DNA from: Lophium mytilinum
Taxonomy: Eukaryota
Direction of reading: 5' to 3'
Length of the DNA stretch: 64,000 bases
NCBI GenBank assembly: GCA_010093605.1
Contig: MU004194.1
Span: 6,156-70,155, forward strand
Shown here one piece after another: positions 1,783 to 40,028 of the stretch. The notes beneath the pieces were generated by a model. The model saw only the letters and a list, made by a program, of their open reading frames with translations, did no database searches and was not told where the DNA came from. A program made the position numbers and the translations under genes. Positions within the stretch are counted from its first letter, which is position 1. Every line of letters begins with the position of its first letter.

Positions 1783-2955
1783 NNNNNNNNNNNNNNNNNN
1801 NNNNNNNNNNNNNNNNNNNNNNNNNNNNNNNNNNNNNNNNNNNNNNNNNNNNNNNNNNNNNNNNNNNNNNNNNNNNNNNNNNNNNNNNNNNNNNNNNNNN
1901 NNNNNNNNNNNNNNNNNNNNNNNNNNNNNNNNNNNNNNNNNNNNNNNNNNNNNNNNNNNNNNNNNNNNNNNNNNNNNNNNNNNNNNNNNNNNNNNNNNNN
2001 NNNNNNNNNNNNNNNNNNNNNNNNNNNNNNNNNNNNNNNNNNNNNNNNNNNNNNNNNNNNNNNNNNNNNNNNNNNNNNNNNNNNNNNNNNNNNNNNNNNN
2101 NNNNNNNNNNNNNNNNNNNNNNNNNNNNNNNNNNNNNNNNNNNNNNNNNNNNNNNNNNNNNNNNNNNNNNNNNNNNNNNNNNNNNNNNNNNNNNNNNNNN
2201 NNNNNNNNNNNNNNNNNNNNNNNNNNNNNNNNNNNNNNNNNNNNNNNNNNNNNNNNNNNNNNNNNNNNNNNNNNNNNNNNNNNNNNNNNNNNNNNNNNNN
2301 NNNNNNNNNNNNNNNNNACCTAGATTTTCTTTATTAATTTAGATTTAAGTATTTAATTCTTTATTATTACTTATTTAGCTATATTTTATCTTTAGAGAAT
2401 TAAAAAGATAATAAATTTAAGAACCTATATTAAAGATTAACTAAGCTAAGCTTATACTTCTATTATACTTAACCCTTTTTATATCTAGAAGAAGAGGGAA
2501 AATTAACGCTTTTCTATTAATACTAGCTAAGCTAATATACTTTTAGTTCTTCTAGGTAGCTATTCTACTACTAGAACTTCTTCTATTAGAACTTCTATAG
2601 CTACTACTACTACTAAAATAGCTATTATTATCTTTCTAAGGCTATTTTAGGGGCGTGCTCTAAGTTAATATATTTTAGCTATACTTACTAGCCCTATTCT
2701 TCTAAAGAATAGTATTTAGAGAGCCTATCTAATACTAAGTAGAGTTTAGAGGGGTCTTTCTAGTAGAGTTATTATTATTACTAATAGATAACTAGAATAA
2801 GTAGTAGCTTAATAGTATATTAGAAGTAGGCTCTTAAAAGTACTATAGAGAACCTAAAGAAGAATAATAAGAAGTTAAAGAAGTTAGAAAAGTTAAAGGC
2901 TAAGTAGAAGAGGTTAGAGAGTATTACCTTAAACCTTAAGTACTAGAACCTAAAG

Positions 2956-3197
2956 TATAATAGATTACGCCCTGTTCTCTAGTTATATATTTATCTATTA
3001 CCGGCCTTCTACCTCTATACTTATTATATTACCTTACGCCGCCTACGCGCTAGCCCGCCTAGTGCCTACGCGCCTCTTTTCTCTATATATATAGTTTCTA
3101 TCTAGAAGCCTTTCTTTTTACTTCTTATATAACCTTTTAAAATTAATCTATCTAGTTATTTTATACTACTAAGCTTCTCTATACTATAACTATAATA
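2956..3197 (+). repeat. 5' LTR
   Basis: Collinear with 10583-10824. Termini read TA...TA, as expected for RIP'd TG...CA. Confidence 0.9.
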
Positions 3198-3689
3198 TTA
3201 GGTTATATTTAATACTTTAACTAGTACTAATTCTTTTTTACTATTACTACTTTAACTCTTATATCTTAACCCTTAATTTTTATTTACTAAGCTATTTAAC
3301 TACTTAGTAAAGTATATCTATATAACTATATATATAATACTAAAGGGTATATAACTATACTATATTACCTTACTAAGCGCTATTACTATATTCTCTATAA
3401 TAAGTAATCTACTAGGCGCTAGAGCCCCTACTAATAAAGAATCTAGATATTCTAGATATAGTAGCTTATAACTAGCCTTCTACTTTCTACTATTCTACTT
3501 ATAGTTCTACGCGCCCTTTAAGTCTTCTTATAAGACTCTAAATAGCGCGCCTCTTTAAAAAATATCTAAGATAAATCCCTAGAATAAAGAAGATATCTAG
3601 TAGTCTACCTAAATAGTACGTGTAGATACTTAGCTAATCTAAGAGAAAGAAAATTAGCTTACCTAAGATAAAGACGCTACTAAAGATAA

Positions 3690-5925
3690 TTATATTAATA
3701 ACTCTATATATACTCTAGATCTAATAGTCTATAGCTCTATTATTAAGTACTATACTTCTAGCTATAGCTATAATCTAGGTATATTTCTTAACTCTATTAA
3801 TAATATTACTAAATTTCTAGACTATTTACTTCTACCTAGTAATAAATAGTTTAATAGCTTAATTAAGATTATAGACTCTTAGAACTTTCTTATATAAGTC
3901 TAAGCTAATTCTATCTACTTCTTCTATATTCTTAAGAGCTATTAAGCTATAACTAAGATTCTCTAGTAGATATATAAAAATAACTAGAAAGCATAGCATA
4001 AGCTCTAAGATAAAATTAGAGTTCTTAAAGATAAATATAATAAAAAGAATAATAAATTAGAAGCTATATATAAGAAACTTAAATACTTACTTAATATTAA
4101 AACTAAACTAAAAGAATATAAAAATAAACTCTATACTTATAAGAAGATAGTAGCTTTACTAAATAAGACTATTACTTCTCTTAATATAGATATTAAGGCC
4201 TAGTAGAAGAACTATATCTAAGCTAATAAGTAATTCTTAGAGTAAGAAAAGATTATTAAACGCCTTATAGTAAACTTTACTTAAGTAGCTAAAAATAAGT
4301 ATAAATATAATACTCGCCTTACTACTCTAGAGAATAAAATTAAAATACTATAAATACTCTAGTATACTTCTATATCTACACCTATAGTAGCCTTTTCTAT
4401 AACTATACCCTCTATAGCGCCCTATCTACTCTACTCTATTATACCTTCTATTAACTCTATTATAGTAGCAGCTAAAGATCTACTTACCTCTCTTAATAGA
4501 GTAATCTATTTAGAAGAAGCGTAAGCTAATAATAGCCCCTTAGTAGGCTATAATACTAATTAACCTTACTATACTATAGAGTATATAAATAATAATTAAG
4601 CTTACTATACCTTAGACTATATACGCAGTTACTATAACTCTAGTCTACTTTTATCTAATAATAGAAGCCCCTCTTATTACTGCAACTATATATATAGCTA
4701 ATCTTATTATTATAATTACTTTTATAAGTATTACTCTTATTAACGCTTCTACTTATACTTCTACTTATACTTACGCTTATATTTATAAAATATAAGCCGT
4801 CCCTATTACTATTACTAAGATCTCTATATTAAGATATCTAAAGATTATTAAAACCTTAGTATTACTCTAAATAGAGTCCCTTATATAGAAGATAAGTTCT
4901 AGCTCTATTTAAATAAGTTTAGAGGTAATAAGAATAAGTACTCTAAGTTCTATTATAGATTTCTAAATAAAGTTAACTATAGTAGCTATACTATAAGATC
5001 TAGTAAACCCTTATATCTTACCTATCTTAGTAAGTAACTTATAGGTATACCCCTTAAAGGCTTCCGCGCCTAGTAAGATAGCTACTAGCCCTTTCTTACT
5101 ATCTAGAAAGCTATTATATTCTTAGACTTCTAATATAATAACTCTAATAAGATTAGAACTACTAAGAATAAGCTTTATAAGCTTATCTAGATTAATAGTA
5201 TAATATCTAATTATATATAGAAGCTAATAAAGTTATATATAATCTATCTTCTAGGCTAAAGGGGCTATAATAATATCTATAACCTTAAGTAGAAACTCCG
5301 CCTAGATATTATTACTAGCGCTATTTTAGGTAAAGGCTTTACTATAGGCCTATAGTATATTAATACTATATATAAATAGCTCTATAATAATAGTATTAAT
5401 AAGAATGCGCAGCCTACTAACTATAGCTTTAGAAACTTTAACTATAACTAACTCTAAGGCTTTAATTATAATAACCGCGACTAGAATAACTATAATTATT
5501 ATAATAGTAATTGCTATAACTATAATTACTATAACTATACCTATACTTTACGCCTCTTAACTATAGCTACTATCTCTATAGCCTAAGAAGATATTAAGAT
5601 TACTTCTCCCTCTAACTAGATTCTATCTAATAAGCTTTATAAAGGCAATAGAGAAGCGCTTATAAAGAATAGTAAGTACTTCTACTACTATCTCTCTAAG
5701 TACTTTACCTAAAACCTATATTACCCTATAAATTAACTTAATAAACTAGGCTTTAGCACTTATTAGATAGATTCTATACCCTATTTTAATAATTATGCTG
5801 CCCGCGTTAAAGAACTCTTAGATAATAATAATAGTTTTAATAATTATAAAACCCTTAATAATAAGCGCGGCTCTAGCTACTCTAAAGATAAAGGTTTTAA
5901 GGAAGGTTCTTAGGGAAAAGTAAGG
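3690..5925 (+). pseudogene. RIP'd gag (boundaries approximate)
   Basis: Lies after the 5' LTR. Degenerate CCHC zinc knuckle (CFxCHxxxHF-like) near 5675-5725. Confidence 0.55.
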
Positions 5926-6752
5926 TTATAGACTATAGTTGCAGTCTATAATATAATAAGAACTTAGTTATAAAGAATCTTTAGTATAGAAGGCTTATTA
6001 TTTTAGTAGCCTCTCTTAGTAAAGCTTAATAGAAACTATTTTAAAATAAAGATAGAAGATTTAATATTAAGCGGGTAAATAATATAGTTCTTTTAGTAAT
6101 AGTATAAACCTATAAGAAAGAATAACCTATAGNNNNNNNNNNNNNNNNNNNNNNNNNNNNNNNNNNNNNNNNNNNNNNNNNNNNNNNNNNNNNNNNNNNN
6201 NNNNNNNNNNNNNNNNNNNNNNNNNNNNNNNNNNNNNNNNNNNNNNNNNNNNNNNNNNNNNNNNNNNNNNNNNNNNNNNNNNNNNNNNNNNNNNNNNNNN
6301 NNNNNNNNNNNNNNNNNNNNNNNNNNNNNNNNNNNNNNNNNNNNNNNNNNNNNNNNNNNNNNNNNNNNNNNNNNNNNNNNNNNNNNNNNNNNNNNNNNNN
6401 NNNNNNNNNNNNNNNNNNNNNNNNNNNNNNNNNNNNNNNNNNNNNNNNNNNNNNNNNNNNNNNNNNNNNNNNNNNNNNNNNNNNNNNNNNNNNNNNNNNN
6501 NNNNNNNNNNNNNNNNNNNNNNNNNNNNNNNNNNNNNNNNNNNNNNNNNNNNNNNNNNNNNNNNNNNNNNNNNNNNNNNNNNNNNNNNNNNNNNNNNNNN
6601 NNNNNNNNNNNNNNNNNNNNNNNNNNNNNNNNNNNNNNNNNNNNNNNNNNNNNNNNNNNNNNNNNNNNNNNNNNNNNNNNNNNNNNNNNNNNNNNNNNNN
6701 NNNNNNNNNNNNNNNNNNNNNNNNNNNNNNNNNNNNNNNNNNNNNNNNNNNN

Positions 6753-9700
6753 ACCTTATTAAAAAAGCTAGTAAGCTACCTAAAGCCCGGCTATATACTA
6801 TATTAAAGAAAGAACTTAAAGTTATTAAGAAATAGATTAATAATAACCTTAATAAAGAATTTATCTATAAGTTATAATTCTCTATATTCTCCCCTATACT
6901 TCTTATCTAGAAGCCTAAAGAAGGTGTTTATTTCTATATTAACTATAGGGCTATTAATACTATAATAGTTAAAATAAGATACCTACTACTACTTATCTAA
7001 GAAATACTCTAAAAGCTTAGTAACGCTAAATAGTATTCTAAACTAGATATTATTTCTATATTTAATTAAATCTAAATATAGGAAGAAGATATAAGTCTTA
7101 CAGCCTTCTCTATATAATAGGGATAGTATAAATCTATTATTATACCCTTTAGCGTTATAGAAGGCTCTAGATAATTCTAATTCTTTATTAATTATATATT
7201 ATATAACTACCTAGATAATTTCTATTTAGCCTATATAGATAATATTCTAGTCTATATAAATAGTACTAAAGAGGAACATAAAGAGCACGTTATAAAGGTA
7301 CTAGAAAGGCTTAATAAAGCTAGCCTTAATTATAACTTTACTAAATATAAATTTAATAAAATAGAAATTAAGTACTTAGGTCTTATTATTATAATAGGCG
7401 GCGTCTATATAGACTCTAAGAAAGTCGCCGCTATTATTAACTAGAAGATACTAATATACCTACGCGATATATAAGCTTTCTTAGAATTTACTAACTTCTA
7501 TTAACGCTTTATATACGCGTTCTCTTAAATTATTAGCCTACTTATATCTATAATAAAGACTATAGATAGTAAAAAAACTAAACTTAAAGTATAGTTTATC
7601 TAGAATATAGAATATAATAAAGCTTTCTAAATACTTAAAATAGTATTTACTACTATACCTATTCTATACTACTTCTAATACGGCAAGAAGGTCTATATTA
7701 AAATAGACGCTTCTAACTATATTATTACTAGTATTATATCTTAGGTAGGGGAGAATAGTTTACTCTACTCTATTACCTTCTTCTTATCTAAAATAAGCCT
7801 CTAGGAATATAACTATAAAATCTATAATAAGAAACTATTTACTATAGTTAAAGCCTTTAAAGAATAGTATTTTAAACTAGTAAGCGCTAATTTAGATAAC
7901 TCTATAGATATACTTATAGATTACTATAATCTTAAGTATTTTATATTAACTAAATACCTTAATTATTACTAAGCCTGCTAGGCTAGATTTCTTACTAGAT
8001 TTAACTTTAAGATTATCTATTAACCTAGTATTCTTAAAGAAAAACTAGATAGCCTTATAAGAAGATTATAAGACCTTTCTACTAATTTAGATAACCTCTA
8101 TAATTAATTTTAATACTAAATAGTTTTTAAATCTTATAACTTAGGCCTAGGTATTATACTAATATATTTACTAAATATTAACTTAAGCTTATCTAATAAT
8201 AGCCTAAGCTGCATACTAAATCTAATTAGGCTAGTACCTTACTATAAAGAGTTAGACCTATTACTAACTATAGAGTTACTACTATTAAAAATATACTCTT
8301 AATTTCTTCTTATATCTATAATACTACGCAGCTATATATATAATAATATTCTTAACTCTAACTCTAACTCTAACTCTAACTCTAACTCTAACTCTAACTC
8401 TAATCTTTACCTTAAACCTAATTCTTCTCTTATAATTAAACTACCTTCTATAAATAATAATAATCTCTATATAGAGCCTAATCTAGTCTATTAGTATATA
8501 CTTACTAAGCTATTTAATAAAGGCTATTTTAGCCCGCTATAGAACTTACTAGAGCTGCTATTTAATTCTATACTTTATAAACTTATTACTCTTATATATA
8601 ATAGTAAGCGCGCGCTCCCTTAATCTCTATATAATATTATTAGTAATCTTAATATCTTAGAATTTAAAGTCCGCTATAATTAACTATACTACTATAGCTA
8701 ATTATATATATCTATATATAATAACTTATATTTTAAGCTTTTATAGCTTACCTATAATACTACTATTAGCGGACACCTAGAAAAGTATAGTATATATAAA
8801 CTTATTTAATATTACTACTTCTAGCTAGGTATATATAATTTAGTTAAGAACTATACTAGCGCCTACTATAGCTATAAATAGTTAAAAGCCTTCTATAATA
8901 AGAAATAAGGTCTTCTATATTTACTTAATATACTAGAATAGCGCTAGACTAATATTACTATAGATTTTATTATAGAGCTCCCTCTCTATAAGTATAATAG
9001 CTAAGTCTATACTAAGATTCTTATTATTATCTACTGCGTAAGTAAAGAGCGTTACTATATTTCTATAAGCGGCACCTCTATTAATAATATTATTAATACC
9101 TTTTTCTATAAAATCTACTACCTCTATAGCCTTCCCTATATTATTATTAGCGATCGCAATCTATAATTTATTTTAGATATTTAGAAATATATTTATAAGT
9201 ATATTAATATTTATTAGAATATCTCTATAGTAGCCTACCCTAAAACTAATAGATAAATAGAAAATATAAACGCTATTATAAAGGCCTACCTTAGGTAATT
9301 TATTAATTACTACTAGAATAACTAGATTAACTACTTACCTATTAGTAAGTTCTTAGTAAATAACTAAGTTAATACTTCTACTATAATAATACTATTCTTT
9401 ATTAATAAAGGTTTTTACCTGTACTCTAGGCTTAAGCCTCTACCGGGCGTAATAAATAATATTATACTAGACCCTCTATCTACGCCTACTTTTAGTACTA
9501 ACGCTACTATCTATTACTATTAGCTTAAGAGTAATAAGTATATTAACTAGATAAAGAATATTCTAAATAAATATAAGGCTATAATAATATAGGTATAGAC
9601 TAAATAGATAGACTATATAAACTAATATTATAACCCTCTACTAAAGCTCTAAGTTAATAACTAGGTATAGCTTAACGCCTGTAATATAAAGATAACCCGC

Positions 9701-10150
9701 CTAAATAAGTTACTTAATTATAAGAATCTTAGTTCTTTCTATATTATAAAGGTTATTAATAAGGGCTATACCTTTTAACTTAACTTTATAAATATAAGCC
9801 TTAAAGGCTCTTAAATATACTCTATCTTCTATCTATACCTACTCTATCTAGATAGATTCTATCTACTACTAGGCTAATACTAGCTACTACTACCTTCTAT
9901 CTAGGTTATTAATTCTATTACCTTTAAATTAGTTAAATAACACGCGATTACGCGTATTATTAATAGCTACTAGCGTAGTTATAGACTAAAAGAACACCGC
10001 TACCTTAAATATAAAGAACTCTATAAAGAATACTCTACTCTATAGAAATAGTAACTATAGAAATAGTTTATATCTAAAGCCGCGGATCTAATTAGTAAAT
10101 TCTATAACCTTAACCTAGATACTAATAGTTCTTATCTAGACTTTAAACTA
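6753..10150 (+). pseudogene. RIP'd pol: RT, RNase H, integrase and probable chromodomain
   Basis: Remnants of FCxDYRAIN and RYPLPLI (~6930-6995), MPFG (~7142), AYxDDILVY (~7229-7256), TDAS and NYEIYDKELLAIV (~7703-7850), GHPG (~8771), ISDR (~9145) and HPETDGQTE (~9235-9265). Confidence 0.85.
8354..8401 (+). repeat. (AACTCT)8 hexanucleotide repeat inside the pol linker
   Basis: Directly visible. Plausibly RIP'd GACTCT (Asp-Ser) codons. Confidence 0.85.
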
Positions 10151-10568
10151 AATAATAATTAGCGCGCGCGTCTTACTAATAATAATAACCTTAATAATAA
10201 TAACCTTACTACTAACTATTTATAATTATAATTACTCTATACTAAGCTATATTCTTATCTTTATATAATTACTTTACTATATCTCTATACTATAATTAAT
10301 AGCCTTATATAGTTTATTATAACTTTATATATAATAACTATAATAAGATTAGAATCCTTAGCTGTATAAAGTAGGCTAAGCTGTTATAATAGAAAAGCCC
10401 TTATAAGTAATACCTTAAGCACGCTAGCTTCTTATATATTAGTATATAACTAATAATTAACTAAACTATACTATATAATTTACTATACTAGATAACTATA
10501 CTCTTATATTTAAACCTAACACGGCCTATAATACTATTTTTTTTTTCTTTTTCTTTTCTAGTATTCTT

Positions 10569-10582
10569 AAATAGGGGGGTAG
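10569..10582 (+). other. Polypurine tract
   Basis: AAATAGGGGGGTAG immediately before the 3' LTR. Confidence 0.7.
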
Positions 10583-10824
10583 TATAATAGATTATACTCT
10601 ATTTTCTAGTTATATATTTATCTATTACTAGCCTTCTACCTCTATACCTATTATATTACCTTGCGCTGCCTATGCGCTAGCCTACCTAGCGCCTATACGC
10701 CTCTCTTCTCTATATATATAGTTTCTATCTAGAAGTCTTTCTTTCTACTTCTTATATAACCTTTTAAAATTAATCTATCTAGTTATCTTATACTACTAAG
10801 CTTCTCTATACTATAACTATAATA
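10583..10824 (+). repeat. 3' LTR
   Basis: Direct repeat of 2956-3197, followed by TAAAG. Confidence 0.9.
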
Positions 10825-13436
10825 TAAAGTAGCTATATTTTCTAAATCTAATATAGCTATAAATAATTACTAGAAGCTAGAACTTAAACTAGAAGCCTAA
10901 GTAAAAGTACTACTAAAGCTCTATAGATAATATTAAGCTATTAAAGATTTAAAAGTATAAGAAATACCTAGATTATATAGTAGTATAGTAGTCTTTCTTT
11001 AAATTAATTCTATTAGTAGCTATATAGCTAAGGCTAAGCGCACTATATTTTTAGCTAGGTTTTTAAGAGATTTTTAGTTATAAAAAGAAGATATAAACTT
11101 AGTAATATTATAGTAACCTTATTAAATATAAGCTCTAGTAGTCTTTTAATAAGCTATTAGAGTCTATTCTTCTATAATAGATATTAGCTAAGTTCTAAGA
11201 TACTCTAAAAGTAAAGCTAAACTTACCTTAAAATAAATAAGTCCCCTTACTATTCTACTAATAATATTCTATATAGAATTTTTAATAGAGAGAAGAACTA
11301 TCTAGATTATAAGCCTAAATATATTTACTAAACTAATAGCCTTCTAAGAATATTTTTAAGTAGTAGTTGCAGGCCCTATAGATAGAAAAAGCCCTAGAAT
11401 TCTTATTATAATCTACTTTTAAGCCTAAATACTATTTAAGAAGCCCTATAAAGTATAAAGTATAGCTATAGTTCTTATTTAAAATTAGTTTATTATTTCT
11501 AATATTACTAAGAAACTCTTAAAGTAGTATATTTCTCTAAGCTCTACTACTACCTTTAAACTTTAGGGGGTATTTAGTATAGTTTAAATAATTAAAAGGT
11601 ATAGCATAGTATTAGAAGGCTTAAGAAATTAAAATAGAATTATTAAAGGCTATTAGCTATATATAGTATAGATTATAGAACCTCTAGACTATTAAAAGGT
11701 TAATAATTAATATAAGTATAATAGTAACTAGATCTTATTAGCTTTATTAAAAGAAAAAGTTAAACTATTATTAGAAACTTACTATAGGCCTATAAGGCTT
11801 TATAAGCTAAAATACCTAAGAATTTATAAGAGCGCGGAGCCTTATAACTATAGCTAGAGTCTAAAGAATTATTACCTCTACTATCTCTACCTCTTCCTAA
11901 ATAGAGTAAGCTAGAGGCTATAGAACCTAGCTAAATATTAAGTAATATTATAATACTAACTTAGAGTAAAGAGAAGTAGCCTAGAAGCTAAAAGAGAGAA
12001 AGTTCTAATAAAAGAATTAATAAAGAAGAATAATAGTAATAAGAAAAAAAGCTATAAGAGTCTTTAATAAACCTTTAAAGCTAAAAGAAGCTTAAACCTT
12101 AAAAAAGAAAGTTAAGTATAGAAAAAAGAGTATAAAAGTATTAAGAAGGCCTTATATATACTCTAGATTCTTAAATCTATTACTTCTAGATTACTACTTA
12201 CTACTCTATAATATATTAATAGCTTCTTAAACCTATATAAGATTATAAGCTTCTTACTAAATTATAAGAAACTTTATAAGATCTTTAATAAGCCTATTAT
12301 TAGCTATTATAGCTCTAATTATATATTAGAACCTAATGCGTGCTAGTATACTAATATTTATATTACCTTATAATTCCCTCTATTATAAATACTTTATAAT
12401 TTCTTTTAATTCTTTCTTACTAGTAAGCTATTAAATATTCTAATACCTTTATTATTCCCTCTACTAATATAGTAGTAGGCTTCTAAAGAATTCTAAACCC
12501 CTTTTAGATATATTACTATAATATTACCGCCTACTAATATACCTTTTATAGTATTATATACTTCTAGAAGCTTTAAAGCTTTTAAAGAAGCTAATAGCCT
12601 AATATACTAATAGTATATAGTATAAAGTAGTAAGTATAATATACTATTATAAATATAATTTAATAGTAAATTAGATCTAGAAGGGGAGAATATAGAATTC
12701 TTAATATATAGTTAATATTTAAATATTATATATATAATATATAGGTCTACTATAGAAATACTTTTCTATATAAATCTAGTATAATTAAGGCCTATATAGG
12801 CCTCTCTAATATATATATAGCTTAGCTAGATTTCTATATAGAATTAATATCTATTATTCTCTAAATTCTTATATTATATAATTGGAAATATTATAATAGC
12901 AGTACTATATTTATTTTTAGGGGTTGGTTTCTACTATACTAGTTCTAGACTATCTAGTCCCTTACAAGTAAATAACGCGACGAACCTATAGTAAGCAAGC
13001 CTAAGATCTGATAGTACTTATGGCTGAAAGCAAGGTAACATCTTCCCTCTCGTTATTATGATATCTTCTAGCAGTAGCCCGTTGCTTACGCCTGTCGACG
13101 ACGCTTGGCCCACTTTCTCCATGATAGCGGCAAAGACGTCCGCCAAGTACTGATCTTGTGAGTCTGCGATTCCTATCTATCCGCATATTGCGTTCTTCCG
13201 GAGTTGGTCGTTATTAGCTGAGACGGACGCGAGTCAATACTCAGCATTGTGAAGAAACTTGGTAGTTTGTTAATGATTAACGGATGAAAATTCACTCTTG
13301 TACCACACCCATAAAGATCTCCGGCTTCTATGACACGCAATTCTCCTCATTAAAACTTTTGAGACATTCGCAAAGACTCCTATTTGCACAGAATCCATCT
13401 CAAGCAGAAACTTATTCTCCCAAAGCCCCACCCAAC

Positions 13437-28991: not shown

Positions 28992-30512
28992 TCAAATGTA
29001 GTCCCAACGACTATCGTTGTAGGGATGAAAATTATCATTCCCAACACCAGGTGGCCCAGGATCGTACTTGTTATTGAGGCCCCAAAGATCCTCCCAATTG
29101 TCCAGAATCTCTGAACTTCCGGCGGAATGTTTTTCTTGGTCGGTCACCTCAAGGAGTTCTCCTTCATACTCGTGCTCCTTCGTAGGAAGGGCGCTGATAT
29201 CACCGCCGTTCTTCAACCAATCAGCCACTCCTGCTTGAGTGACTTCTTTAGTCGGGTTAGACCCCAGCAGAAACCTGACCGGTCGCGAGCTCATCAAGCT
29301 TGCGCGGTAGAGATACTCTTCACGGATATCTTTTGAGGCGCCTTGCATGTTCTCGCGTAAGAGTGTAAGCTCGGTTGGGCCGATGAGCTTTTGCAGGTCC
29401 TGGAAGCAGCTCGAGGCCGCATAGGCCGCTGTATCGGCGGCATCATTACCTTTCGAAGTACTATGACCTGGAACCCACCGAAGCTCTAAGTTAGCACCCG
29501 CTTCATGCAATGCTTCCGCTCGCTCGTATGCTTCAGCGAGTACAAGACGTGAAGAAACTACTGGGCCTATGAGGATGGGGTTGCCATTGTTCAGGCACAT
29601 TAGAGCATTCTGCGAGTCAGTATACATGATTACCTTCGCGTCACGCTTCTCGTGAATGTCTTCTAAGGCAAGCTTCAAGGCCTCGGAAATGGCGTGAAGC
29701 TCTGCATCATTAGTATCCCCGCAGTTCCGCCCAATAGGGTAGCCAATCTTCTTAAACCCCGACCTGTCTGGCTTGAGGCAAGTGACTCCTGCTCCCATGA
29801 AGCTATGATTGTTAGAACTCCCGCTACGTACTGAACCGTCCGTCCAATACGTCCATTCATGGCCAGATTTTGGCCCCTCACGTTGGATTGAGTGGTCGAG
29901 AGCGTCAGCCCGATCATCGATGATGATTTTACCTGGGAAAGTGCGTTTAACACGACCCGTGCCAACGACTGAGTTATAGAGTCGTTTCATCCGAAACTTT
30001 TGTACTCTTTTCGCCTGCTGGCGTGTCGGATCTTGATTAGTGGATACGGCTGGTTTCGGGGGAAGATGAGAAAGACGCTGTTGGTTGATATTTGCGGTCA
30101 CCTGGCTCGCGACGGTACCTCTATTACGTCTGTGTTTGTATCCAGGCACATGGAAACCGGGACGGTTGCTGCTTAACGATGGATTGTTCCTTGTAGGCGT
30201 TCCGTTCGGGCCCTGTGGAGCAGTGACCTGGAAGTTGAGTGGTGCATTACTGTTAGTCCCAAAGTTGGGTACGAAGGGACGTTGAGGGAGTTGTTGAAGG
30301 CCGGTATTGTTCGTATGGCCATTGTTACTCCTAGGCGCAACAGGATCTGGTGGTAGACTATTCACTGGACGAGCCGGCAAGGGGTGAACCATATGGCGCC
30401 GGTGGCTGGTAGTTGGGCGAGGGGGTAACGGGTGAAGCATTCCACTGCCAAGTAAGTTCAACCCAATAGGAGTTTGTTGTGGCCCAGCATGGCCATGCCT
30501 TATACGTCCCAT
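28992..30512 (-). CDS. Stand-alone RNase H1-fold protein with a Pro/Asn/Arg-rich disordered N-terminus (gene A)
   Basis: WTDGS, DAELHAI, YTDSQ and WVPGH...GNDAAD give a complete D-E-D-(H)-D set. TATA-like sequence on the minus strand near 30610. Confidence 0.88.
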   Translation of the reverse strand: MGRIRHGHAGPQQTPIGLNLLGSGMLHPLPPRPTTSHRRHMVHPLPARPVNSLPPDPVAPRSNNGHTNNTGLQQLPQRPFVPNFGTNSNAPLNFQVTAPQGPNGTPTRNNPSLSSNRPGFHVPGYKHRRNRGTVASQVTANINQQRLSHLPPKPAVSTNQDPTRQQAKRVQKFRMKRLYNSVVGTGRVKRTFPGKIIIDDRADALDHSIQREGPKSGHEWTYWTDGSVRSGSSNNHSFMGAGVTCLKPDRSGFKKIGYPIGRNCGDTNDAELHAISEALKLALEDIHEKRDAKVIMYTDSQNALMCLNNGNPILIGPVVSSRLVLAEAYERAEALHEAGANLELRWVPGHSTSKGNDAADTAAYAASSCFQDLQKLIGPTELTLLRENMQGASKDIREEYLYRASLMSSRPVRFLLGSNPTKEVTQAGVADWLKNGGDISALPTKEHEYEGELLEVTDQEKHSAGSSEILDNWEDLWGLNNKYDPGPPGVGNDNFHPYNDSRWDYI

Positions 30513-30714
30513 GACTAGGCGGTCGGACAAGTAGCTTTGGCTGTCGAGGAGGTGGGGTGTGTTGTGGGCCTAACAGTGCAAAGTGTGGTGNNNNNNNNNN
30601 GGGGGCTTGTATATATCTAAATCTAAGATGTGGGCCGAACTGAGATAATGCGGGTTGAAGCTGCAACGCCGTGAATTGCAATTCCACTGAAACCCCACGT
30701 GAATCAGTTGTCAT

Positions 30715-31577: not shown

Positions 31578-33494
31578 CTACGGATGAGCTAATATACTGC
31601 TATTTTTGGTGGGCAATGCGTCAATGTCCCCTCCATCCTCGACCCACTGTGTGACGGACTCCTCCGTAAGCTCTCGAGAAAGGTCATTCTCAAGCCAGAA
31701 TTTCATTGGCCGCGCAGCGTGTCTACTGACCCGGTGGAAGAACTCTTTCCGAATGCCCTCAGCCGCCCTTTGTAATGCATTGGGGAATATTTGAGCAAGC
31801 TTCATCATATTGTAGGAGTCTTCGACCCGATGAGCGGTCATAATTGCTGCAGAGTTTGCCCATAGCTTGCCTTCAGACGCTTGCTGAGCCGTGAGCGGTC
31901 GAATCGACACCTCTACGCCAGCATTTGCTAACTCGTGTGCATAATCATACGTATCGACGAGAGCAAGACGTGCAGAAATCATCGGTCCGAGGGCCACTGG
32001 CTGACCGCATTGTAGAGACTTTAGAAGGGCTTCCGAATCAGCAAATATGACTACCGGAGCTGCCGAGCCTTCTCGCGCGCGGTCTAAAGCGAGCCGTAGT
32101 GCACTAGCCATCGCGAAGAGCGATGCATCGAGCGTATTACCTACATTACGCCCAAGATAGTGCCCTTTAACGTCCACTTCCTCGCCCTCTGGTGCTAACC
32201 ACGCAACTCCAGCGCCTAAGAACGTGTTGTTGCCCCTGGCATCGTGTTTAAGATACCCGGCCGTCCAATATGTCCAGTTGGAGGGAGCGGAAGTGTGTCC
32301 ATGGTGTCGCTGTGGCGTTGGGGGTATGGCCAGTTCAACATAAGTATCAAGCATGATCTTGCCTGGAAATGGGCGTCGGGTCTCTTCTGTGCTAGCAATT
32401 GAGGTGAGAATTTGCGATAGTACGGGTTCTCTAGGATGGATTGCCGGCGATAAGGTGAAGATTGGAGGATCATTGAAGCCGCCATATTCCTTCCAATCGA
32501 TCATCCATGCAACCGGTATTTCTCGCTGGTGGTCTGACGCGAGCACATAACGTATGGGGTACGGAATACCCTTCTCAACTCGGTACAAAAACTCATATCT
32601 TATGTCCCTTTCCGCTCCAATCATCTCAATTGGGAAAAGGACGGTCCCTCTCGGGAGACCTGCATTATGAAGGAAGTTTTTGTAGTTCTCCGATGCAGCC
32701 CCAGCGGCCTGATCTGCAGCGACGTTTCCGGCGGATTTGCTATGCGCTTTGATCCATCGAAGTGTAAGAGGGATCCTCTCTTCTTTCAAACGCTCGGCAC
32801 GTTCGTATGCTAAAGAAAGCGCGAGCTTTCCTGATCCCATTGGTCCTAGAATCGTCGAGTTGCCGTTCTTTAAAGCTTTGAGTATTGCCTGCGAGTCTGA
32901 GTAAATGACAATAGACGCCTTTGATCCAGCCTGAACTCCTCGAAGTGCAAGTTCTAGAGCTGCAGCAATGGCGAAAAGCTCGGCGTCGTTTGAATCTCCG
33001 AGATTACGGCCAATGGGATATTCCGCTTTCTCGAAAGCATTGCCATGCGCTACCATCCAAGCAACCCCAGCAGCACTGATCTCATCTTTGTTCCAGTTTT
33101 TGATCAAGGATCCGTCAGTCCAATATACCTGTTCAGAGCGTGCAGACCAATGCTCTGCTTCATGGAGATGAGATTGTGCAACGGCGTCGTTCTCCTCCTC
33201 GATGTATATGTTTGCTGGGAATTTGCGCACATTCGGACCGCTCCCAAGAATGCGCTGGGCCATACGCTCGACTCGTGCGTTGCGGTCCTGGACAAGAAGC
33301 GTATATGCCGCATTTCGGGCTGGGAGTGTGGCCGCTGCAGCCTCCTGGCGTTGACGCGCTACCTGGCTTTGGGCGAAGCGATATTTTAATTCGTCTCCGG
33401 TCAATTTTCTGCCCTTCCTAACAGCGTTTTTGGCCAATCTCCGCTGTATCGCTTCGTCATCAAGCGACTGTTTGTTGATACGGCGGCGCGCCAT
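31578..33494 (-). CDS. Tandem double RNase H-domain protein (gene B; domain 1 intact, domain 2 degenerate)
   Basis: Domain 1 has WTDGS, DAELFAI, YSDSQ and WIKAH..GNVAAD. Domain 2 has WTAGY, DASLFA, FADSE and GKLWAN at the same positions. Confidence 0.88.
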   Translation of the reverse strand: MARRRINKQSLDDEAIQRRLAKNAVRKGRKLTGDELKYRFAQSQVARQRQEAAAATLPARNAAYTLLVQDRNARVERMAQRILGSGPNVRKFPANIYIEEENDAVAQSHLHEAEHWSARSEQVYWTDGSLIKNWNKDEISAAGVAWMVAHGNAFEKAEYPIGRNLGDSNDAELFAIAAALELALRGVQAGSKASIVIYSDSQAILKALKNGNSTILGPMGSGKLALSLAYERAERLKEERIPLTLRWIKAHSKSAGNVAADQAAGAASENYKNFLHNAGLPRGTVLFPIEMIGAERDIRYEFLYRVEKGIPYPIRYVLASDHQREIPVAWMIDWKEYGGFNDPPIFTLSPAIHPREPVLSQILTSIASTEETRRPFPGKIMLDTYVELAIPPTPQRHHGHTSAPSNWTYWTAGYLKHDARGNNTFLGAGVAWLAPEGEEVDVKGHYLGRNVGNTLDASLFAMASALRLALDRAREGSAAPVVIFADSEALLKSLQCGQPVALGPMISARLALVDTYDYAHELANAGVEVSIRPLTAQQASEGKLWANSAAIMTAHRVEDSYNMMKLAQIFPNALQRAAEGIRKEFFHRVSRHAARPMKFWLENDLSRELTEESVTQWVEDGGDIDALPTKNSSILAHP

Positions 33495-34586
33495 GATTTG
33501 TGTTCATAGGAGTGCGATTTAGGCAGTGTTAAAGATGGCTTGAAGCCGCAGGTTGGTGGCGCAGATTGTGTTTGAAAGGGTCCAATTGCAAATGAATAGG
33601 TGAATGCCAAGTTGGGACACCCAACACGTGACGACTATTTCCTAACATCGCAACACGGCGATAACGATTGACGGGACTTTGTCTTTCTTACCGTTGATAG
33701 GAAGATGCGCTAAGAGTTGAATGTCCTAAAAGTTGTGCTACACTGGCTATTTTGTTTCTGCGTTCTATTATCAAGACCGAGGATGTTAGTAATATTGCGC
33801 GTCCTAATAAATAAGTGAGGATTCCTCTGCGGTCCGATCTGGATTCTTCCCGCAATCTTGTTCCACGCACCGTGAATTGGGTTACGAAATCGGGCCGTTT
33901 TCCCGCCTGTTCATTTTATGGAGAGTGTTTTGACTTGCGTCCTCTCTTCTCTCTTTGACGTCTTTTGCCGCGCACGATGAACAATACGGTAATCCTTCAA
34001 CTCCTACTATGAACTCATATTGCGCCAATCTTTCTGTGAAGCTCCATTTCACGGGTGATCTGATGCCATTTTTCCTGCACCATGCATCTCCTAGAGATGC
34101 TAGGCCAGCTCCTCAAACTGAAGCTGAGTTGAAAGAGCTCCCCAGAGGTGACTAAACTGCTCATACGGTATGAGAGCGCCCAATCTTGGTCCTAATGTTA
34201 CGATTACATACTTCTTTGTAGATACTCTGAGTTTCGACGTTGGCCCGTCATCACCGACCTATTTCCGGCGACCCAAATCCAGTCCTGGGACTTTGAAACG
34301 CGCAAGGCTACGAATTTGTTTAGTTGGGTCTAGAAGGATATGAAGCGGTGATCGGAGGCATCTTCTTAGAGAAGGATGAAGTGAAGTCAGAGACAGGGAA
34401 GTGTATGTAAGCAGAGAGTGCCACGCTAAACTGTTTATGACAACCGAGGCTTTTGCAGCTCACATCAGCCCTAGAGCGAAGGCCACATCAACCGTACAAC
34501 TCCAACATGGTGCATTCACACCGTCATGATGCTACTCCGTCTTTGTTGCATAGCTACGTCAGTGGGGTAGTGAGGGCAGCTACATC

Positions 34587-35929
34587 ATGTTCAACGTACT
34601 CGACAATTGGGTCGTTACGAACCATGTCATTCCGGCATCGTGGCCTCGAGGTTTCGCACGAGGAGTAAGAGATGAAGAAAGCGGACGACTGCGGCTCGCC
34701 GTTAACGAATATGTGCCTCGGGCAAACATGAGTCCTCAGCCTGGAGACGTCACATTCCTGTTTGCTCATGGTACAGGTTCGACAAAAGAGTCTTATGAGC
34801 GTAAGTATTTCCCGGGCAACTATTATCTCATCCTTCATTTGAAGCGTTTCATTGTCATTCATCAAAGTCTCCAGGCTGAGACTTACATCTTCTAGCATTC
34901 TTCGATGATGTGCTTACCCGGTTCCCCCGTATCCGCGCCATCTGGGCTTTCGATATCGCTTGGCATGGCGCATCCTATCTCCTCAACGAGCACGTTATTG
35001 GAGACGAGCCTGACTGGTTCGACTGCGTCCGCGATATTCTGCACATCGCCAATCATTTCCAGAGAGATCTTCACCAGCCAATGGTAGGAATGGGCCAATC
35101 GTGGGGGTGCTTCAATATTCTTCTGGCTGCTGTCCACAATCCGCGAATCTTTGCCGGCATTATTGCTTTAGAACCTGTTCTGGTTACCGGGTATAAAACC
35201 GGACCACCTCATATGCACATCGCCTTCCTTATGATGAAACGACGAGACCGATGGTTGTCACGCGAGTATGCAAAACGCGCACTCCGGAAGAGCCCTTACT
35301 ACGCAGTCTTTGATGATCGGGTTTTCGATCAGATCATTCGCTACGACCTCCGCGACGTTCCGCTCGAACCACAGACGGCACAGGGTGCGTCCGCAGCATC
35401 TTCGGTCGCACCGGAGGTTACTCTAACGACTCCCAAGGCCATGGAGGCCTATACGATGATGCGCGCGAATCCGCCATTGCCTGGCTATCCTCCTGGGCCA
35501 GACCACAACCCCAATCACTCGAGCCACTCTACACCCGTTATCCCTGGATTCCACCGAGCGGCTGACACGGAAGCTCACAGGCACGTCCCGCACGTGTTGC
35601 CTCCTGTGCTATACGTCTGGGGCTCTCGGTCGTATATCGCGAAACTACCAGGTTACCGACAAATGCTAGTAGAGCAGACAGGAATTGGGCCCGGCGGCAG
35701 CGGAGGAGCACCTGCTGGACATGTTACTGAGACCGTGATCGGGGATTGCGGTCACTGCTTGCCTTTTGAGAAGCCTCATGAGACAGCGAAGGCATTGCAG
35801 CCGTGGCTTAAGCAGCATGTCGATGTCTGGGGAAAACATCGGAGGGAGAGGAAGAAGGAAGGACCATACTGGACGGATACCATAAACCCCGGATGGATTG
35901 AGAGGGCGTCTAAAATATCGAAACTATAG
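34587..35929 (+). CDS. Alpha/beta hydrolase with PTS1 (Lpx1-like peroxisomal hydrolase)
   Basis: FAHGTG..KESYEP, GQSWG nucleophile elbow, GHCLPFEKP and C-terminal SKL. Intron at 34801-34895. Confidence 0.88.
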
Positions 35930-36016
35930 TTTTACAGTATCGCTACGCTGTGATATACATAAAACCTTGTCGAAAACATTATGGCGGTCTGTTTCTTCTC
36001 GTTTCTGGCACAAGCA

Positions 36017-36580
36017 GCGAAGATAGGTGAATCAAAAGGCGCTTGTCCACGGAACATGCCGCTCTCTGCCGCGGCCTACCTCCTGCTACTTCTTGCCTGC
36101 CGCCCGGCTGCTGTCTGGCCGCTCCTCGCACTTCACTACCGTCATCACGTGAGCCACGTGGGCGCCAAGCCATTCTGGAATTTCGAAGTATATAAACCCC
36201 TCCGGCCCCCAAATTTTTCTTCCTCAGCTTCTCCTCTTTCGCAAAAGTGGTGTGAGGGACCGGGCTGTGCGTGTACGGTGCCAGACCCAAGATGTATTTA
36301 GTCGCGTTTGCTTTTTGTGCTTTGTCTTCGGACCTCCGCGTGGGACCCTCAATTCTTGGAGAAGCTTTTCCTATGTCTTATGTAGTTTCTATGGGACCTT
36401 GCAAGTTAATATTGGTTGGCAATGGACCGGGTTGGGCGATGCTGGGGCCCTTCCCAAAACTTTGTATGTAGTCTCTCGAACTAAAATTCTTCTTCCTCTT
36501 AACGCTGAAGGTCATCTTTCACTATGCAAATGGTAATGTCCATCATTGATCGCAACGCTGGATCTCACTTAAAGGTCACG
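36017..36580 (+). ncRNA. Putative non-coding transcription unit, copy 1
   Basis: Homologous to 36853-37420. CACGTG at 36146 and 36155, TATATAAA at 36189, and no reading frame shared with copy 2. The duplication is certain; the ncRNA call is an inference. Confidence 0.4.
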
Positions 36581-36852
36581 AAAGTAGTAAGCGCTTCTAC
36601 TACAGTCTGACGCTTATTGCTCAGACGCGATGCCGTACATTGCTAATTAATAAAGACCAGTCGTTCACACCTTTCCAAACAGTCTCTAGACACGTCCTCC
36701 ATCACAGTCGGCTTACTCTTTGCCCCTAGCCTACTCATCCACCGCTCCGATGATCCCTTGCCGTCGTTCGAACGGAAAGCTGTCATGTGATCGCTTTCCA
36801 TGGTTTGACCCAGATTGCGAGTAACGAGTGAACGTCCAACCGGTCGCAAAGC

Positions 36853-37420
36853 GCGAAGATAGTGAATGAAAGAGCGCTCGTTCCCAAAACATGCCGCTCT
36901 CTGCCGCTACCTGCCACCTCCCACCTCCCGCCTGACGCTTCCTGCCTGTTGTTTGACCGCATCACTCCCGCCATCACGTGATCCACGTGGGCGCCCAGCC
37001 ACTTTGGAATTTCGAAGTATATGAACCCCCCGACCCCGAACTTCGAAGCTCCACCAATCTTCTTCTCTTCTCGACAACATGGATGGGGAGGACCGGGCTG
37101 AGCGTGTTGATGCCAGTTCCTAAGATGTATCTACAGTTGCGTTGCTTTCTCCGTGCTTCTTGATTTTTCGCGGGTGCGGGGACCTTCCACCGAAGAAGAT
37201 TTTTCCTTTGTATTGTAGGCTGTGCCTCTCCGTTCTGTAGTATGAGACGTTCCACGTCAAGCGTTGGGAACGATCGGGTTGGGCGGCGGACGGGGCCCTT
37301 CTCCAAATTTGTATTTTCACCTTCGAACCAAGTAGTTTCTCTCCAGTGGCGTTTTGCGTGTTTGAGGTTGATTCTCTATGTGCTAAAGATCATCATTGAA
37401 GTTTCAATCTGAATGTCACC
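36853..37420 (+). ncRNA. Putative non-coding transcription unit, copy 2
   Basis: CACGTG at 36975 and 36984, TATATGAA at 37018, and conserved blocks GGACCGGGCTG and CGGGTTGGGCG..GGGGCCCTTC. Confidence 0.4.
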
Positions 37421-37736
37421 GATCCTCAACGATGAGCTCTTTATGTATGTACTAATAAAGGTGAGCTTTGACTATGCTTGGTCCACTGCTTGATCATCGC
37501 CACATGATGCAAACCTGTCCCCATTCTGTTGATTGCAAGCTGTAGCGTCTGATATTAGGTGGAAGGCTAGCTAATATACAGGAATGGACCCAAGTTTGTT
37601 ACCGTGATTGCTTGCTGTGGTGATTGTCCTAATCCAACACATTCGACGATACCTAGGTAGCGAGCAAGCGCTTACTCCTTAGCAAGACACTTGCTCTCTC
37701 ACCTGCAACACCAGTGCTCTTCGCCCCTCGTGACTG

Positions 37737-40028
37737 CTAGTACCCCACCGTGTTTCTTCTCGCCAGAACTTCTTGGATGTCTTTGAAAGCCTCAATCCTG
37801 ACCCCGACAGCCTCAAGAACTTCTCTTTCTTCGCTCTGCGGGCCCCCAAACTGCTGCATCCACTTGTCTTTCTGGAATGGCTTCCAAGGCCACTCATCAG
37901 GCTCGCAAGTCTTCCATTTTCCATCCTCTAGCGATCCATCTGGGATCTCTAGGTGCTTGAAATACTTCCGAACCACATCCATGGTACATCGCGACGCTGT
38001 CGAGAATGTGCCGTGACCGATAGACTTCTGTTCCACGAAGCCCGCACCAGCGAACCGCCGGGCCATTTTGACGGCGCCCTTGATCGCACATACTGGGTCG
38101 TACGACGAGGACAGAAATAGAATCGGATTCGACGTATTCACTTGTTTGTCGTGAGGGATCGAGAAGAAATAATCGTCAGGGTCCCAAGGGAGAGGTGGAT
38201 CTGCTGACTGGATGTTCCAGCCATTACAGCTAACTTGCCATGTCATCCACACATCTCCCCAAGTTGTGTTAGCGGAGAGTAGTTCGAAGAGAGTCGTGAG
38301 ATTGGGGATAGTCTCGTTGAGCTATTTGATGATTAGCACGCTCTATCGTACAACGATATGGGTAGTCGGTAAGCCTACGATGTAGCGTTTGTCGCCGCAT
38401 TTGATAGCCATATTTGCCTCCCAATGGCTGTACATGTTCACTCCCTGTGCTGGAACTGAGTCATCGCAAGGGCAGAACTTGCCTAGACTGGCTTGGAACT
38501 CCGGTAAAGAGATGTAATCGTTGAATAGCTTCGAATGCTCCTCGCGATATAGGGCATCCAACACTTCCGCAGCTAGTGGAAACAAGCGGATTGGTTGGTA
38601 CAATGAGAGGAAAATGAACTGGCGTATGTGGCTATACGTTATCACCACCGGCTGGTGCGTCTGCGGATGGATTACTGCGACGCCTGTCTGCGCCTTTAGC
38701 CGGTCCATAATAGCGGAATACCGAATTCTAATATCCTCAGGTGTATCTCCAGATCGATATATCGCACAGCTGCTTTCGGAGAGGTGGCAGTAATGGAAGA
38801 AGGATCGCAGAACATTCTCTGCGTCCGTGAGAGCATCAACCCAGATCGGGGTGACGTAGTAGTCCGCGTTGACGATTGCATCCAGTACCATCCGTCCAAC
38901 GCGATCGGGATATATTGCTGCAAACGTTTCGCCAAGGAGCGAGCCATAGCTACCACCCCAGTAGGATAGTTGGCCCTTCAGATGTGAATATGGTCTTTCG
39001 AGGGGATGACTTCCTGGTGGAGATCCTTCGATCCAATCGTCCCAAGCCTCAACTATCGAGAGCATATCTCGAGAAACCACGGGAGTACTGAGGTGTCTCA
39101 AGATGCTATTCTCTCCGTAGATGTCGTCTTTTTCTTTGCAAAGACCGGACATAGCTCTCCACCTAACATCGAGAGATTCTAACGAGTTGCCGCTAGAGTT
39201 GACAAGGCCAGGGTTGCTGATATCGAATAGCATAGCATTGAAACGTCCCTGAAGAACTTCCTGCTCTGAAGGCGGCTCCGAAGCAATGAGTCTTTCTTTC
39301 GGCGACGGGAAAGAAAAGCAATCAACTTTAGGCCAGGTTTCTCCGACTCCACGGGGATCAAACCCAATAATATCTTGATCTTCGCCGAAAAGGGCTTGCA
39401 GGCTTTTGGCAGATCTGCGAGCGAAGTCGATACCAGAGCCTCCTGGACCACCAGGGTTCACCAATACGGGCGACGCGCTGAAGTGCTCGGCCGACGTATG
39501 ATTCGACCCTGGAATTAGCACCATGGCAATATGGACTTTGGGATGTCGGCGGCGAGAAATAGAGAGAGGTCGGCTGTAGTCCATTGGAACTGTCAATCGC
39601 GCGCAGAAATTTTCATCGAAGCAGCGATGCCATTCGAGCTTCTCACTCGGAATTATCTCTTGAAGTCAGCATTGTGAACGTGCATTCATAGTGCCTGATC
39701 ATAGATCTGTGTGAGGATCCTGGAAAGCCTTTGGATTGTAGTAATGTACTCCAAAGATCTGAAAGGAAAAGGTGTAATGCGCTTCTTGGAGTCTTACATT
39801 GCTGAATGCTTCCACATAGCTGTTATGGAAACCTCCTCCTAGGGGCTCAACCGAGCTCTTGGGATTGCTCCATTTCGGCCACAAACCCGGTCCGTGAGTC
39901 CAAAATAAATAGCAAAGACAAAAGAACGCAGCGACTGCTGTACGAAGCTGAAACCGATCGGCAGGACTTCGTTCTTTGCCGGTGTCGCGTCTGTCTATCT
40001 TGACGTCTTCCAACGGTAAAGAGGGCAT
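37737..40028 (-). CDS. TAP-like / peptidase S33 alpha/beta hydrolase with N-terminal membrane anchor
   Basis: NPGGPGGSG, GFDPRGV, YWGGSYG, PILFLSSSYDPV and GHG. Three exons. Confidence 0.88.

Follow-up and report, generated by a model that had tools for sequence, protein, structure and literature searches.

Two adjacent units in the genome of the fungus Lophium mytilinum form, together with two unlinked copies, a small family that we read, with a probability of about 0.5, as orphan non-coding RNA polymerase II (Pol II) genes carried on an snRNA cassette, subject to birth-and-death turnover and holding modules under some constraint. The parts of this reading taken directly from sequence are a U2-type promoter core, a body unlike those of U1, U2, U4 and U5, a worn 3' box some 100 nt beyond the predicted start, and a duplicated module. 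The units lie in a window of 64,000 nucleotides, the whole stretch of DNA that was analysed, on contig C14 of the 43.4-Mb assembly. An earlier sequence-only reading of the window had described them as non-coding, promoter-driven and gene-like, which our results support, and had missed where they come from: both their promoter core and the worn 3' box inside them would derive from the genome's own snRNA genes. The units look like small-RNA genes that are either newly born or decaying.

Each unit is about 570 bp long and the two are spaced 829-836 bp from start to start, in agreement with the earlier description of ~570-bp segments about 836 bp apart; over their first 306 nt they are 74% identical (E 1.3e-40). 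The flanking genes are convergent, as had been reported. Upstream lies an alpha/beta-hydrolase gene on the + strand (33871-35929; Pfam PF12697, Abhydrolase_6; two GT..AG joints in its RNA contig) and downstream a TAP-like hydrolase gene on the - strand (37737-39665; PF08386 and PF00561; CT..AC joints). The sequence-only reading had proposed a gene pair; the duplication stands but the word pair does not, since two further unlinked copies exist on contigs C3 and C17. The C3 copy is 80% alike to window positions 37024-37316 and the C17 copy matches the 5' part of copy 1 at 71%. A model built from the four copies retrieved just these four from 62 sequence sources. Flanking neighbours differ at the three family loci (C14, C3 and C17), and the C3 and C17 copies stand back to back (divergent) with protein genes. 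An upstream promoter extension is common to copies 1 and 2 only (36017-36140 and 36853-36970, + strand; 77% over 77 nt in alignment). Part of the copy 2 upstream region (36924-36960) is a 37-nt, 95% match to an intergenic site elsewhere (L008, G000:C24:110858-110894). Homology of both units ends with ATCATTGA (36542-36549 and 37392-37399), a sequence similar to the opening block of the 3' box but followed by neither a hairpin nor GAAGAAG.

Several other features of the surroundings were recorded. A solo LTR of a TRIM-like element lies outside the units on the - strand (37527-37639) with a 5-bp target duplication. This 113-bp TG..CA LTR, also present at L014 and L017, has at least 41 further matches; 5-bp target duplications flank it as a solo LTR in 8 of 20 rows, and its occurrence in pairs spaced about 540 bp, with PBS- and PPT-like sites, indicates a TRIM-like element. 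Two of the three family loci carry independent solo LTRs, one where the C3 copy ends and the other 210 bp beyond copy 2. Targeting of snRNA-type genes by this element was considered and rejected, as neither 3' box nor promoter was found near 15 other LTR loci. Window positions 1-13000 form an AT-rich block (GC 9-28%), probably of RIP-decayed repeats, and genes with RNase H domains lie at 28992-30569 and 31578-33503.

The promoter core quoted in the sequence-only reading is present in both units with 90% identity over 68 nt (36133-36200 and 36962-37029). Its CACGTG pairs at 36146/36155 and 36975/36984 (double E-boxes at 36146-36160 in copy 1 and 36975-36989 in copy 2, + strand) are the only two pairs no more than 15 bp apart among the 17 CACGTG sites in window positions 13001-64000 (51 kb), and paired E-box-like sites occur in all four copies. 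Behind the E-boxes on the + strand, copy 1 carries a U2-type core (36162-36196) composed of GCGCCAAG, 18 nt and GTATAT, with the TATA at 36189, and copy 2 an snRNA-type core (36991-37025) with one change in GCGCCAAG and the TATA at 37018. The genome has 16 U1 and 9 U2 matches, and their upstream regions share this core with the units. We built a promoter profile from 25 U1, U2 and U4 snRNA promoters of this genome with no family member in it; one U2 gene was omitted from the profiles and one U1 promoter was mis-anchored. In 94 kb searched on both strands, copies 1 and 2 rank first and second (copy 1, 36148-36222, E 0.0024; copy 2, 36993-37045, E 0.63), and a profile of eight U2 promoters alone gives E 1.4e-4 for copy 1 and 0.071 for copy 2, so that neither value for the copy 2 promoter is significant by itself. 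The C3 and C17 promoters have no notable match to the snRNA promoter profiles. Genome-wide, the pattern GCGCCAAG-N16-20-GTAYAT has 10 matches against one in the control, made up of three U2 genes, one orphan unit, copy 1 and five unrelated places; the three U2 genes and the orphan unit have intact 3' boxes. Between copies 1 and 2 the promoter is kept at 54 of 63 positions, against 53 of 101 in the linker. By its sequence, the promoter of the units is of the type used by the genome's own U1, U2 and U4 genes, a finding new to this analysis.

A TATA-like motif stands mostly 40-41 nt upstream of snRNA starts (as assigned by sequence), and from this distance starts are predicted at 36226 and 37057, close to the 36230 and 37060 expected earlier. 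The predicted copy 1 start (CTC/AGCT, like a U2 start) and pyrimidine leader occupy 36226-36242, and those of copy 2, whose first 9 nt are as in the C3 copy, 37057-37074, both on the + strand. The E-boxes of the units stand where most U2 genes have TGAGTCA. The sequence-only reading had called the units bHLH-regulated. This is possible but weakly supported, because the arrangement of CACGTG near -70 and TATA near -45 is a general one among Aspergillus nidulans promoters, according to the accessible text of PMC4046813. In the present genome, CACGTG-N25-31-TATATAA has 27 matches against 11 in the control, and copy 1 stays first on the snRNA promoter profile among these 27 E-box/TATA loci.

All 27 U1, U2 and U4 genes used carry a 3' box behind the RNA, consisting of TTTTCATTGA, a short hairpin and GAAGAAG. 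On a matrix trained on these same 27 genes, intact boxes score 33.8-61.3 bits. The top match in 188,000 positions is the C3 copy (27.8 bits, the next being 15.1), and none of 390 null windows reaches its score. Copy 2 has a worn box (37157-37199, + strand; TTC-TTGA, short hairpin, GAAGAAG) of 9.4 bits, which ranks eighth in the same 188,000 positions and is reached by 7 of the 390 null windows. The homologous position in copy 1, located by alignment to the other copies (36322-36364, + strand), scores -3.3 bits at +97, which is background, and C17 scores -12.3. The highest-scoring position in copies 1, 2 and C3 lies between +91 and +100. None of the four copies matches the intact pattern TTTTCATTGA-hairpin-GAAGAAG, and all score below intact boxes. 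Judged by these scores, the C3 copy has a clear snRNA 3' box and copy 2 a weak one, and copy 1 and C17 have lost it. Additionally, positions 100-200 of the C3 copy align with the 3' flank of a U2 gene (z 7.9, the best of 144 comparisons). The units have no typical Sm site before the box; their only Sm-like candidates, short AATTTGT and AACTTTGT sequences, lie past the box where module B ends. On their sequence features, the units are laid out like an snRNA gene but fall outside every U family, with neither an intact box nor an Sm site.

The conserved 5' and 3' blocks of the body proved to be one module of about 58 nt that is present twice per unit and flanks the box. Module A occupies 36243-36301 in copy 1, where it may form a short hairpin, and 37075-37134 in copy 2; module B occupies 36409-36470 in copy 1, where it ends in TTTGTAT and is homologous to module A (z 4.4, p 0.002), and 37258-37316 in copy 2, with a four-G-tract pattern at 37266-37295 (all + strand). 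The modules are homologous in all nine pairings among copies 1, 2 and C3 (z 3.2-5.5, p <= 0.014); pairings of the C17 module give p 0.033, 0.089 and 0.319, and the C17 copy has no module B. The sequence-only reading had seen the ends of the body as a closing stem followed by TTTGTAT. The heptamer is there (36461-36467 and 37308-37314), but the ends are homologous to each other and not merely complementary. Copy 2 and the C3 copy share 59 identical terminal bases, and module B is identical at 56 of 56 positions between these unlinked copies, while identity is 52-80% in most segments of the family and indels occur throughout. Conservation is higher in the modules than in leader plus linker (Fisher p 0.017, 0.075 and 0.004). 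Because the regions were picked after viewing the alignment, the significance of these tests is inflated; the strongest of the three results also depends on the 59-nt identical run, which could be due to gene conversion. A module profile found only the seven known modules in 876 kb of sequence searched. Further module copies suggested by a pattern (seven matches against five in the control) were discarded, as the five new ones were not confirmed by the profile. The idea that a degenerate copy of the promoter precedes module B was rejected as well (p 0.07-0.98 in nine pairings).

The units match no known class of RNA that was searched for. The Rfam scan called for by the sequence-only reading found no known family, with nothing credible at gathering level over the window and 18 loci, nor at E <= 10 over 35930-37700 and the C17 copy. 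A motif search in the four copies, Rfam and a tRNA search bore out that U1 and U5, tRNA and C/D signatures are missing. There is no tRNA in the units, Pol III A and B boxes are absent from all four copies, and the units thus show neither the boxes nor the tRNA fold of a Pol III gene or tRNA-derived SINE. The C box is absent from all four copies; H box and ACA are missing from copy 1 and from the needed places in the others. Likewise, the snR30/U17 m1 and m2 motifs are absent from all four copies; as the snR30 Rfam model has no match anywhere in the genome, its silence here carries no weight. U3, SRP, RNase MRP and RNase P RNA each have one Rfam match elsewhere in the genome and none in the units, and the U1, U2, U4 and U5 genes also map elsewhere. 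The longest perfect antisense match to U1, U2, U4, U5 or U3 is 6-9 nt, which we judged, without a control, to be at chance level. No target-pairing or catalytic role of the units is indicated.

The units had also been called structured, which folding did not bear out. Whole-unit folds compared with shuffled sequences give z +1.89, -0.46 and +0.22, and folds of 5' parts and 3' blocks z -0.45 to +1.64. A short module hairpin fits 85.7% of cells in the seven modules, with compensatory pairs at 0 of 8; a hairpin structure of the module is thus no more than possible. RNAalifold on three copies draws a closing stem (-39.7 kcal/mol, covariation -2.96, 9 of 57 pairs with a double change), which we rejected because three sequences are too few and single folds are not above shuffles. 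The absence of a long hairpin from the folds of the units speaks against the suggestion of a milRNA precursor.

RNA evidence comes from the assembled contigs of one run (X1), which carry neither strand nor ends. The run is RNA, since four introns of the flanking hydrolase genes are visible as splice joints in its contigs. The spliced contig of the upstream alpha/beta-hydrolase gene extends into copy 1 and covers its promoter and its body up to 36405; the lack of cover at 36406-36541 is of no weight either way. Another contig covers 36826-37286 of copy 2, its first position lying about 230 nt upstream of the predicted start. A joint that links 37316 to an inverted LTR fits, we infer, the C3 copy running into its LTR. 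Because the contigs cross the predicted borders, they are compatible with a separate RNA from the units but do not show one.

The strict pattern of an intact 3' box has 55 matches in the genome against one in the control, at 50 distinct places, of which 15 are U1-like, 12 U2-like and 6 U4; the other 17 follow sequences without a U1-, U2-, U4- or U5-like or Rfam match (L123, L129, L130, L133, L138, L140, L141, L142, L146, L149, L152, L153, L167, L168, L170, L171 and L172, all G000). Most of these 17 orphan loci have snRNA-type promoters, some have introns, and in six an Sm-like site lies no more than 120 nt from the box. L129, L130, L142 and L168 form one family, L140 has three tandem repeats, and L130 combines a U2-type promoter, a foreign body and an intact 3' box. 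Comparison of the units with the 50 boxed units gave nothing convincing (z 4.0 for the best of 700 comparisons). The pair in the window may be a weaker lead, and a poorer experimental target, than the 17 intact orphan genes.

The snRNA genes themselves are varied. Some U1 and U2 variants (L127, L124/L118, L148, L150, L154 and L169) have changed 5' ends or bodies and keep an intact promoter and 3' box, and a U1-like piece with its own box stands directly behind a U4 gene (L139). Many U1, U2, U4 and U3 genes have spliceosomal-type introns near the 5' end (the intron-bearing loci are among L097-L122, L134, L139, L147, L159, L163, L173 and L218), and in two U4 genes these are GC-AG introns. Three U5 genes (L143-L145) are without the 3' box and the U1/U2/U4 promoter layout, two of them being followed by T-runs. 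A separate group of E-box/TATA genes (L176-L199) has G-rich blocks with A-starting spacers of 22-24 nt and no snRNA 3' box, and is dispersed over many contigs. By eye, repeat-spacer arrays occur at about 14 of the 27 E-box/TATA loci; the units have no such layout.

Among other explanations, a heavily diverged spliceosomal snRNA variant, U4 or U1, is very improbable and already largely refuted. The genome does have altered U1 and U2 variants, some C3 and C17 pairings show a patchy colinear likeness to U4 (p 0.013-0.04, uncorrected among 40), and copy 2 holds a short U1-like stretch (z 3.1-3.2 among 700); nevertheless, profiles from the genome's own U1, U2, U5 and U4 missed all four copies, a U4 covariance model with filters off matched none, the U1 5' motif and U5 loop are absent from all four, and Rfam is silent. 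Origin of the body from U4, U1, U2 or U5 was rejected on these profiles and the U4 covariance model. We give the least credence, next to none, to micropeptide genes or transposon remnants. The 59-codon ORF of copy 1 might suggest a peptide, but the same ATG opens only 12 codons in copy 2 and 31 in C17 and is missing in C3, six frames (five over the window copies, one over C3) have no Pfam match, and the RNA contigs of the one run have no splice joint inside the units; no ORF is common to the four copies. Solo LTRs at or near two of the three loci might suggest a transposon, but the copies number only four and each LTR has its own, different target duplication. It is improbable that the units are divergent E-box/TATA repeat-spacer genes, or milRNA-type precursors cut to small RNAs. 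They share with many repeat-spacer genes a 28-nt gap between CACGTG and TATA, their modules are G-rich and end in CAA-A-like motifs, and two segments of copy 1, of 23 nt and 20 nt, have spacer-like ends. Copies 2 and C3, however, have no spacers, the module profile matches none of the repeat-spacer loci, those genes reach no more than 6.9 for a 3' box, their scores on the snRNA promoter profile are lower, and the units have no long hairpin. We hold it to be slightly more improbable still that they are DNA or mRNA control elements, copy 1 being part of the 3' UTR or terminator of the hydrolase gene and the promoters serving neighbours. Such elements would account for the hydrolase contig running through copy 1, the divergent neighbours at C3 and C17, and a layout of CACGTG and TATA that is general in fungi as far as the accessible text of PMC4046813 goes; they would leave copy 2, the snRNA-type core, the box remnant and the duplicated module unexplained, and the neighbours differ at the three loci.

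A more serious alternative, which we consider unlikely but far from negligible, grants the same origin and takes the units as dead or dying relics, like class I snRNA pseudogenes, shaped by duplication and one conversion tract, with RNA from neighbour read-through. The worn boxes, the indels and low identity of most segments, the truncated C17 copy, the lack of a structure signal, the contigs that cross the borders and the insertion of a solo LTR where the C3 copy ends are what relics would show. A promoter kept so much better than the linker between copies 1 and 2, a module B without a single difference between unlinked copies, and paired E-box-like sites in every copy are harder to reconcile with decay. 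Orphan genes on an snRNA cassette are favoured because the snRNA profiles rank copies 1 and 2 at the top and the C3 box is the top match; because 17 of 50 intact boxes follow non-U RNAs and L130 shows an intact swapped unit; because the modules are homologous in nine of nine pairings and better kept than leader and linker; and because RNA contigs cover copies 1 and 2 and one joint fits C3. Against the same reading stand the worn or background boxes, the copy 2 promoter that is not significant alone and the unmatched C3 and C17 promoters, the five unrelated places among ten promoter-pattern matches, the absence of a fold signal and of compensatory change, contigs that cross predicted borders with copy 1 continuous with the upstream mRNA, the lack of a typical Sm site, and module regions chosen post hoc with an identical run explicable by gene conversion. 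Nor was a homologue found in relatives: 58 loci around UBP8-like orthologues held no copy, a weak test since the two closest long loci among those read show no upstream DNA similarity, and one strict pattern had no match in metagenome contigs, which is also a weak test.

If the units are orphan genes on an snRNA cassette, their history may have run as follows. An snRNA cassette would have taken up a foreign body, a state seen intact in L130, and the ancestral RNA would have ended at the 3' box, at about 100 nt. The module would then have been duplicated behind the box. As the box wore out, Pol II would have read on to module B and beyond, giving an RNA of at least about 250 nt. Function probably resides in the modules, most likely in the form of putative short protein-binding hairpins on a capped RNA, and the copies would be in birth-and-death turnover, in which C17 lost module B.

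Fungal milRNA precursors are likewise short intergenic non-coding transcription units; unlike them, the units here have no long stable hairpin and carry snRNA-type signals. With the Pol II U1, U2 and U4 genes of this genome the units share the promoter core, the TATA-to-start distance, a 3' box remnant and a U2-like 3' flank; they differ in an unrelated body (by profile and covariance model), a worn box, a duplicated module and, from most U2 genes, in E-boxes that replace the TGAGTCA element. The accessible text on human variant U1 genes and class I U1 pseudogenes (PMC3561869) describes DNA-duplicated cassettes in which promoter and 3' flank are kept while the RNA drifts, some active and others inactive. 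The units similarly keep flanks while the RNA drifts, although in that account the human variant RNAs are plainly U1 and the bodies here are unrecognisable. The fungal promoter elements are defined from this genome, not as PSE/SNAPc sites. In Aspergillus fumigatus, Afu-182 and Afu-202 are unassigned intergenic ncRNAs shown by northern blot, several such RNAs being conserved across Aspergillus (PMC2377427, accessible text). Like these, the units are intergenic, 220-350 nt long, without known motif and from a filamentous ascomycete; unlike them, they are known from sequence, and blank Rfam scans are the check on a sequence link. Mostly non-subscription literature, supplementary motif lists aside, yielded no account of this 3' box or of genes of this kind.

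More broadly, it is possible, though we hold it to be less likely than not, that the snRNA promoter and 3' box form a reusable cassette that breeds small-RNA genes, with the module as the selected element of an undescribed RNP. If so, the 17 orphan genes and the four-copy family would represent an undescribed class of snRNA-type RNA in filamentous fungi. The signature of promoter plus 3' box would allow orphan RNAs to be listed directly in other fungal genomes where Rfam is blind. Even if the units are relics, their study still yields a Dothideomycete snRNA promoter and 3' box and 17 intact orphan genes; if they are expressed and selected, they show RNA genes arising by body swap in an snRNA cassette.
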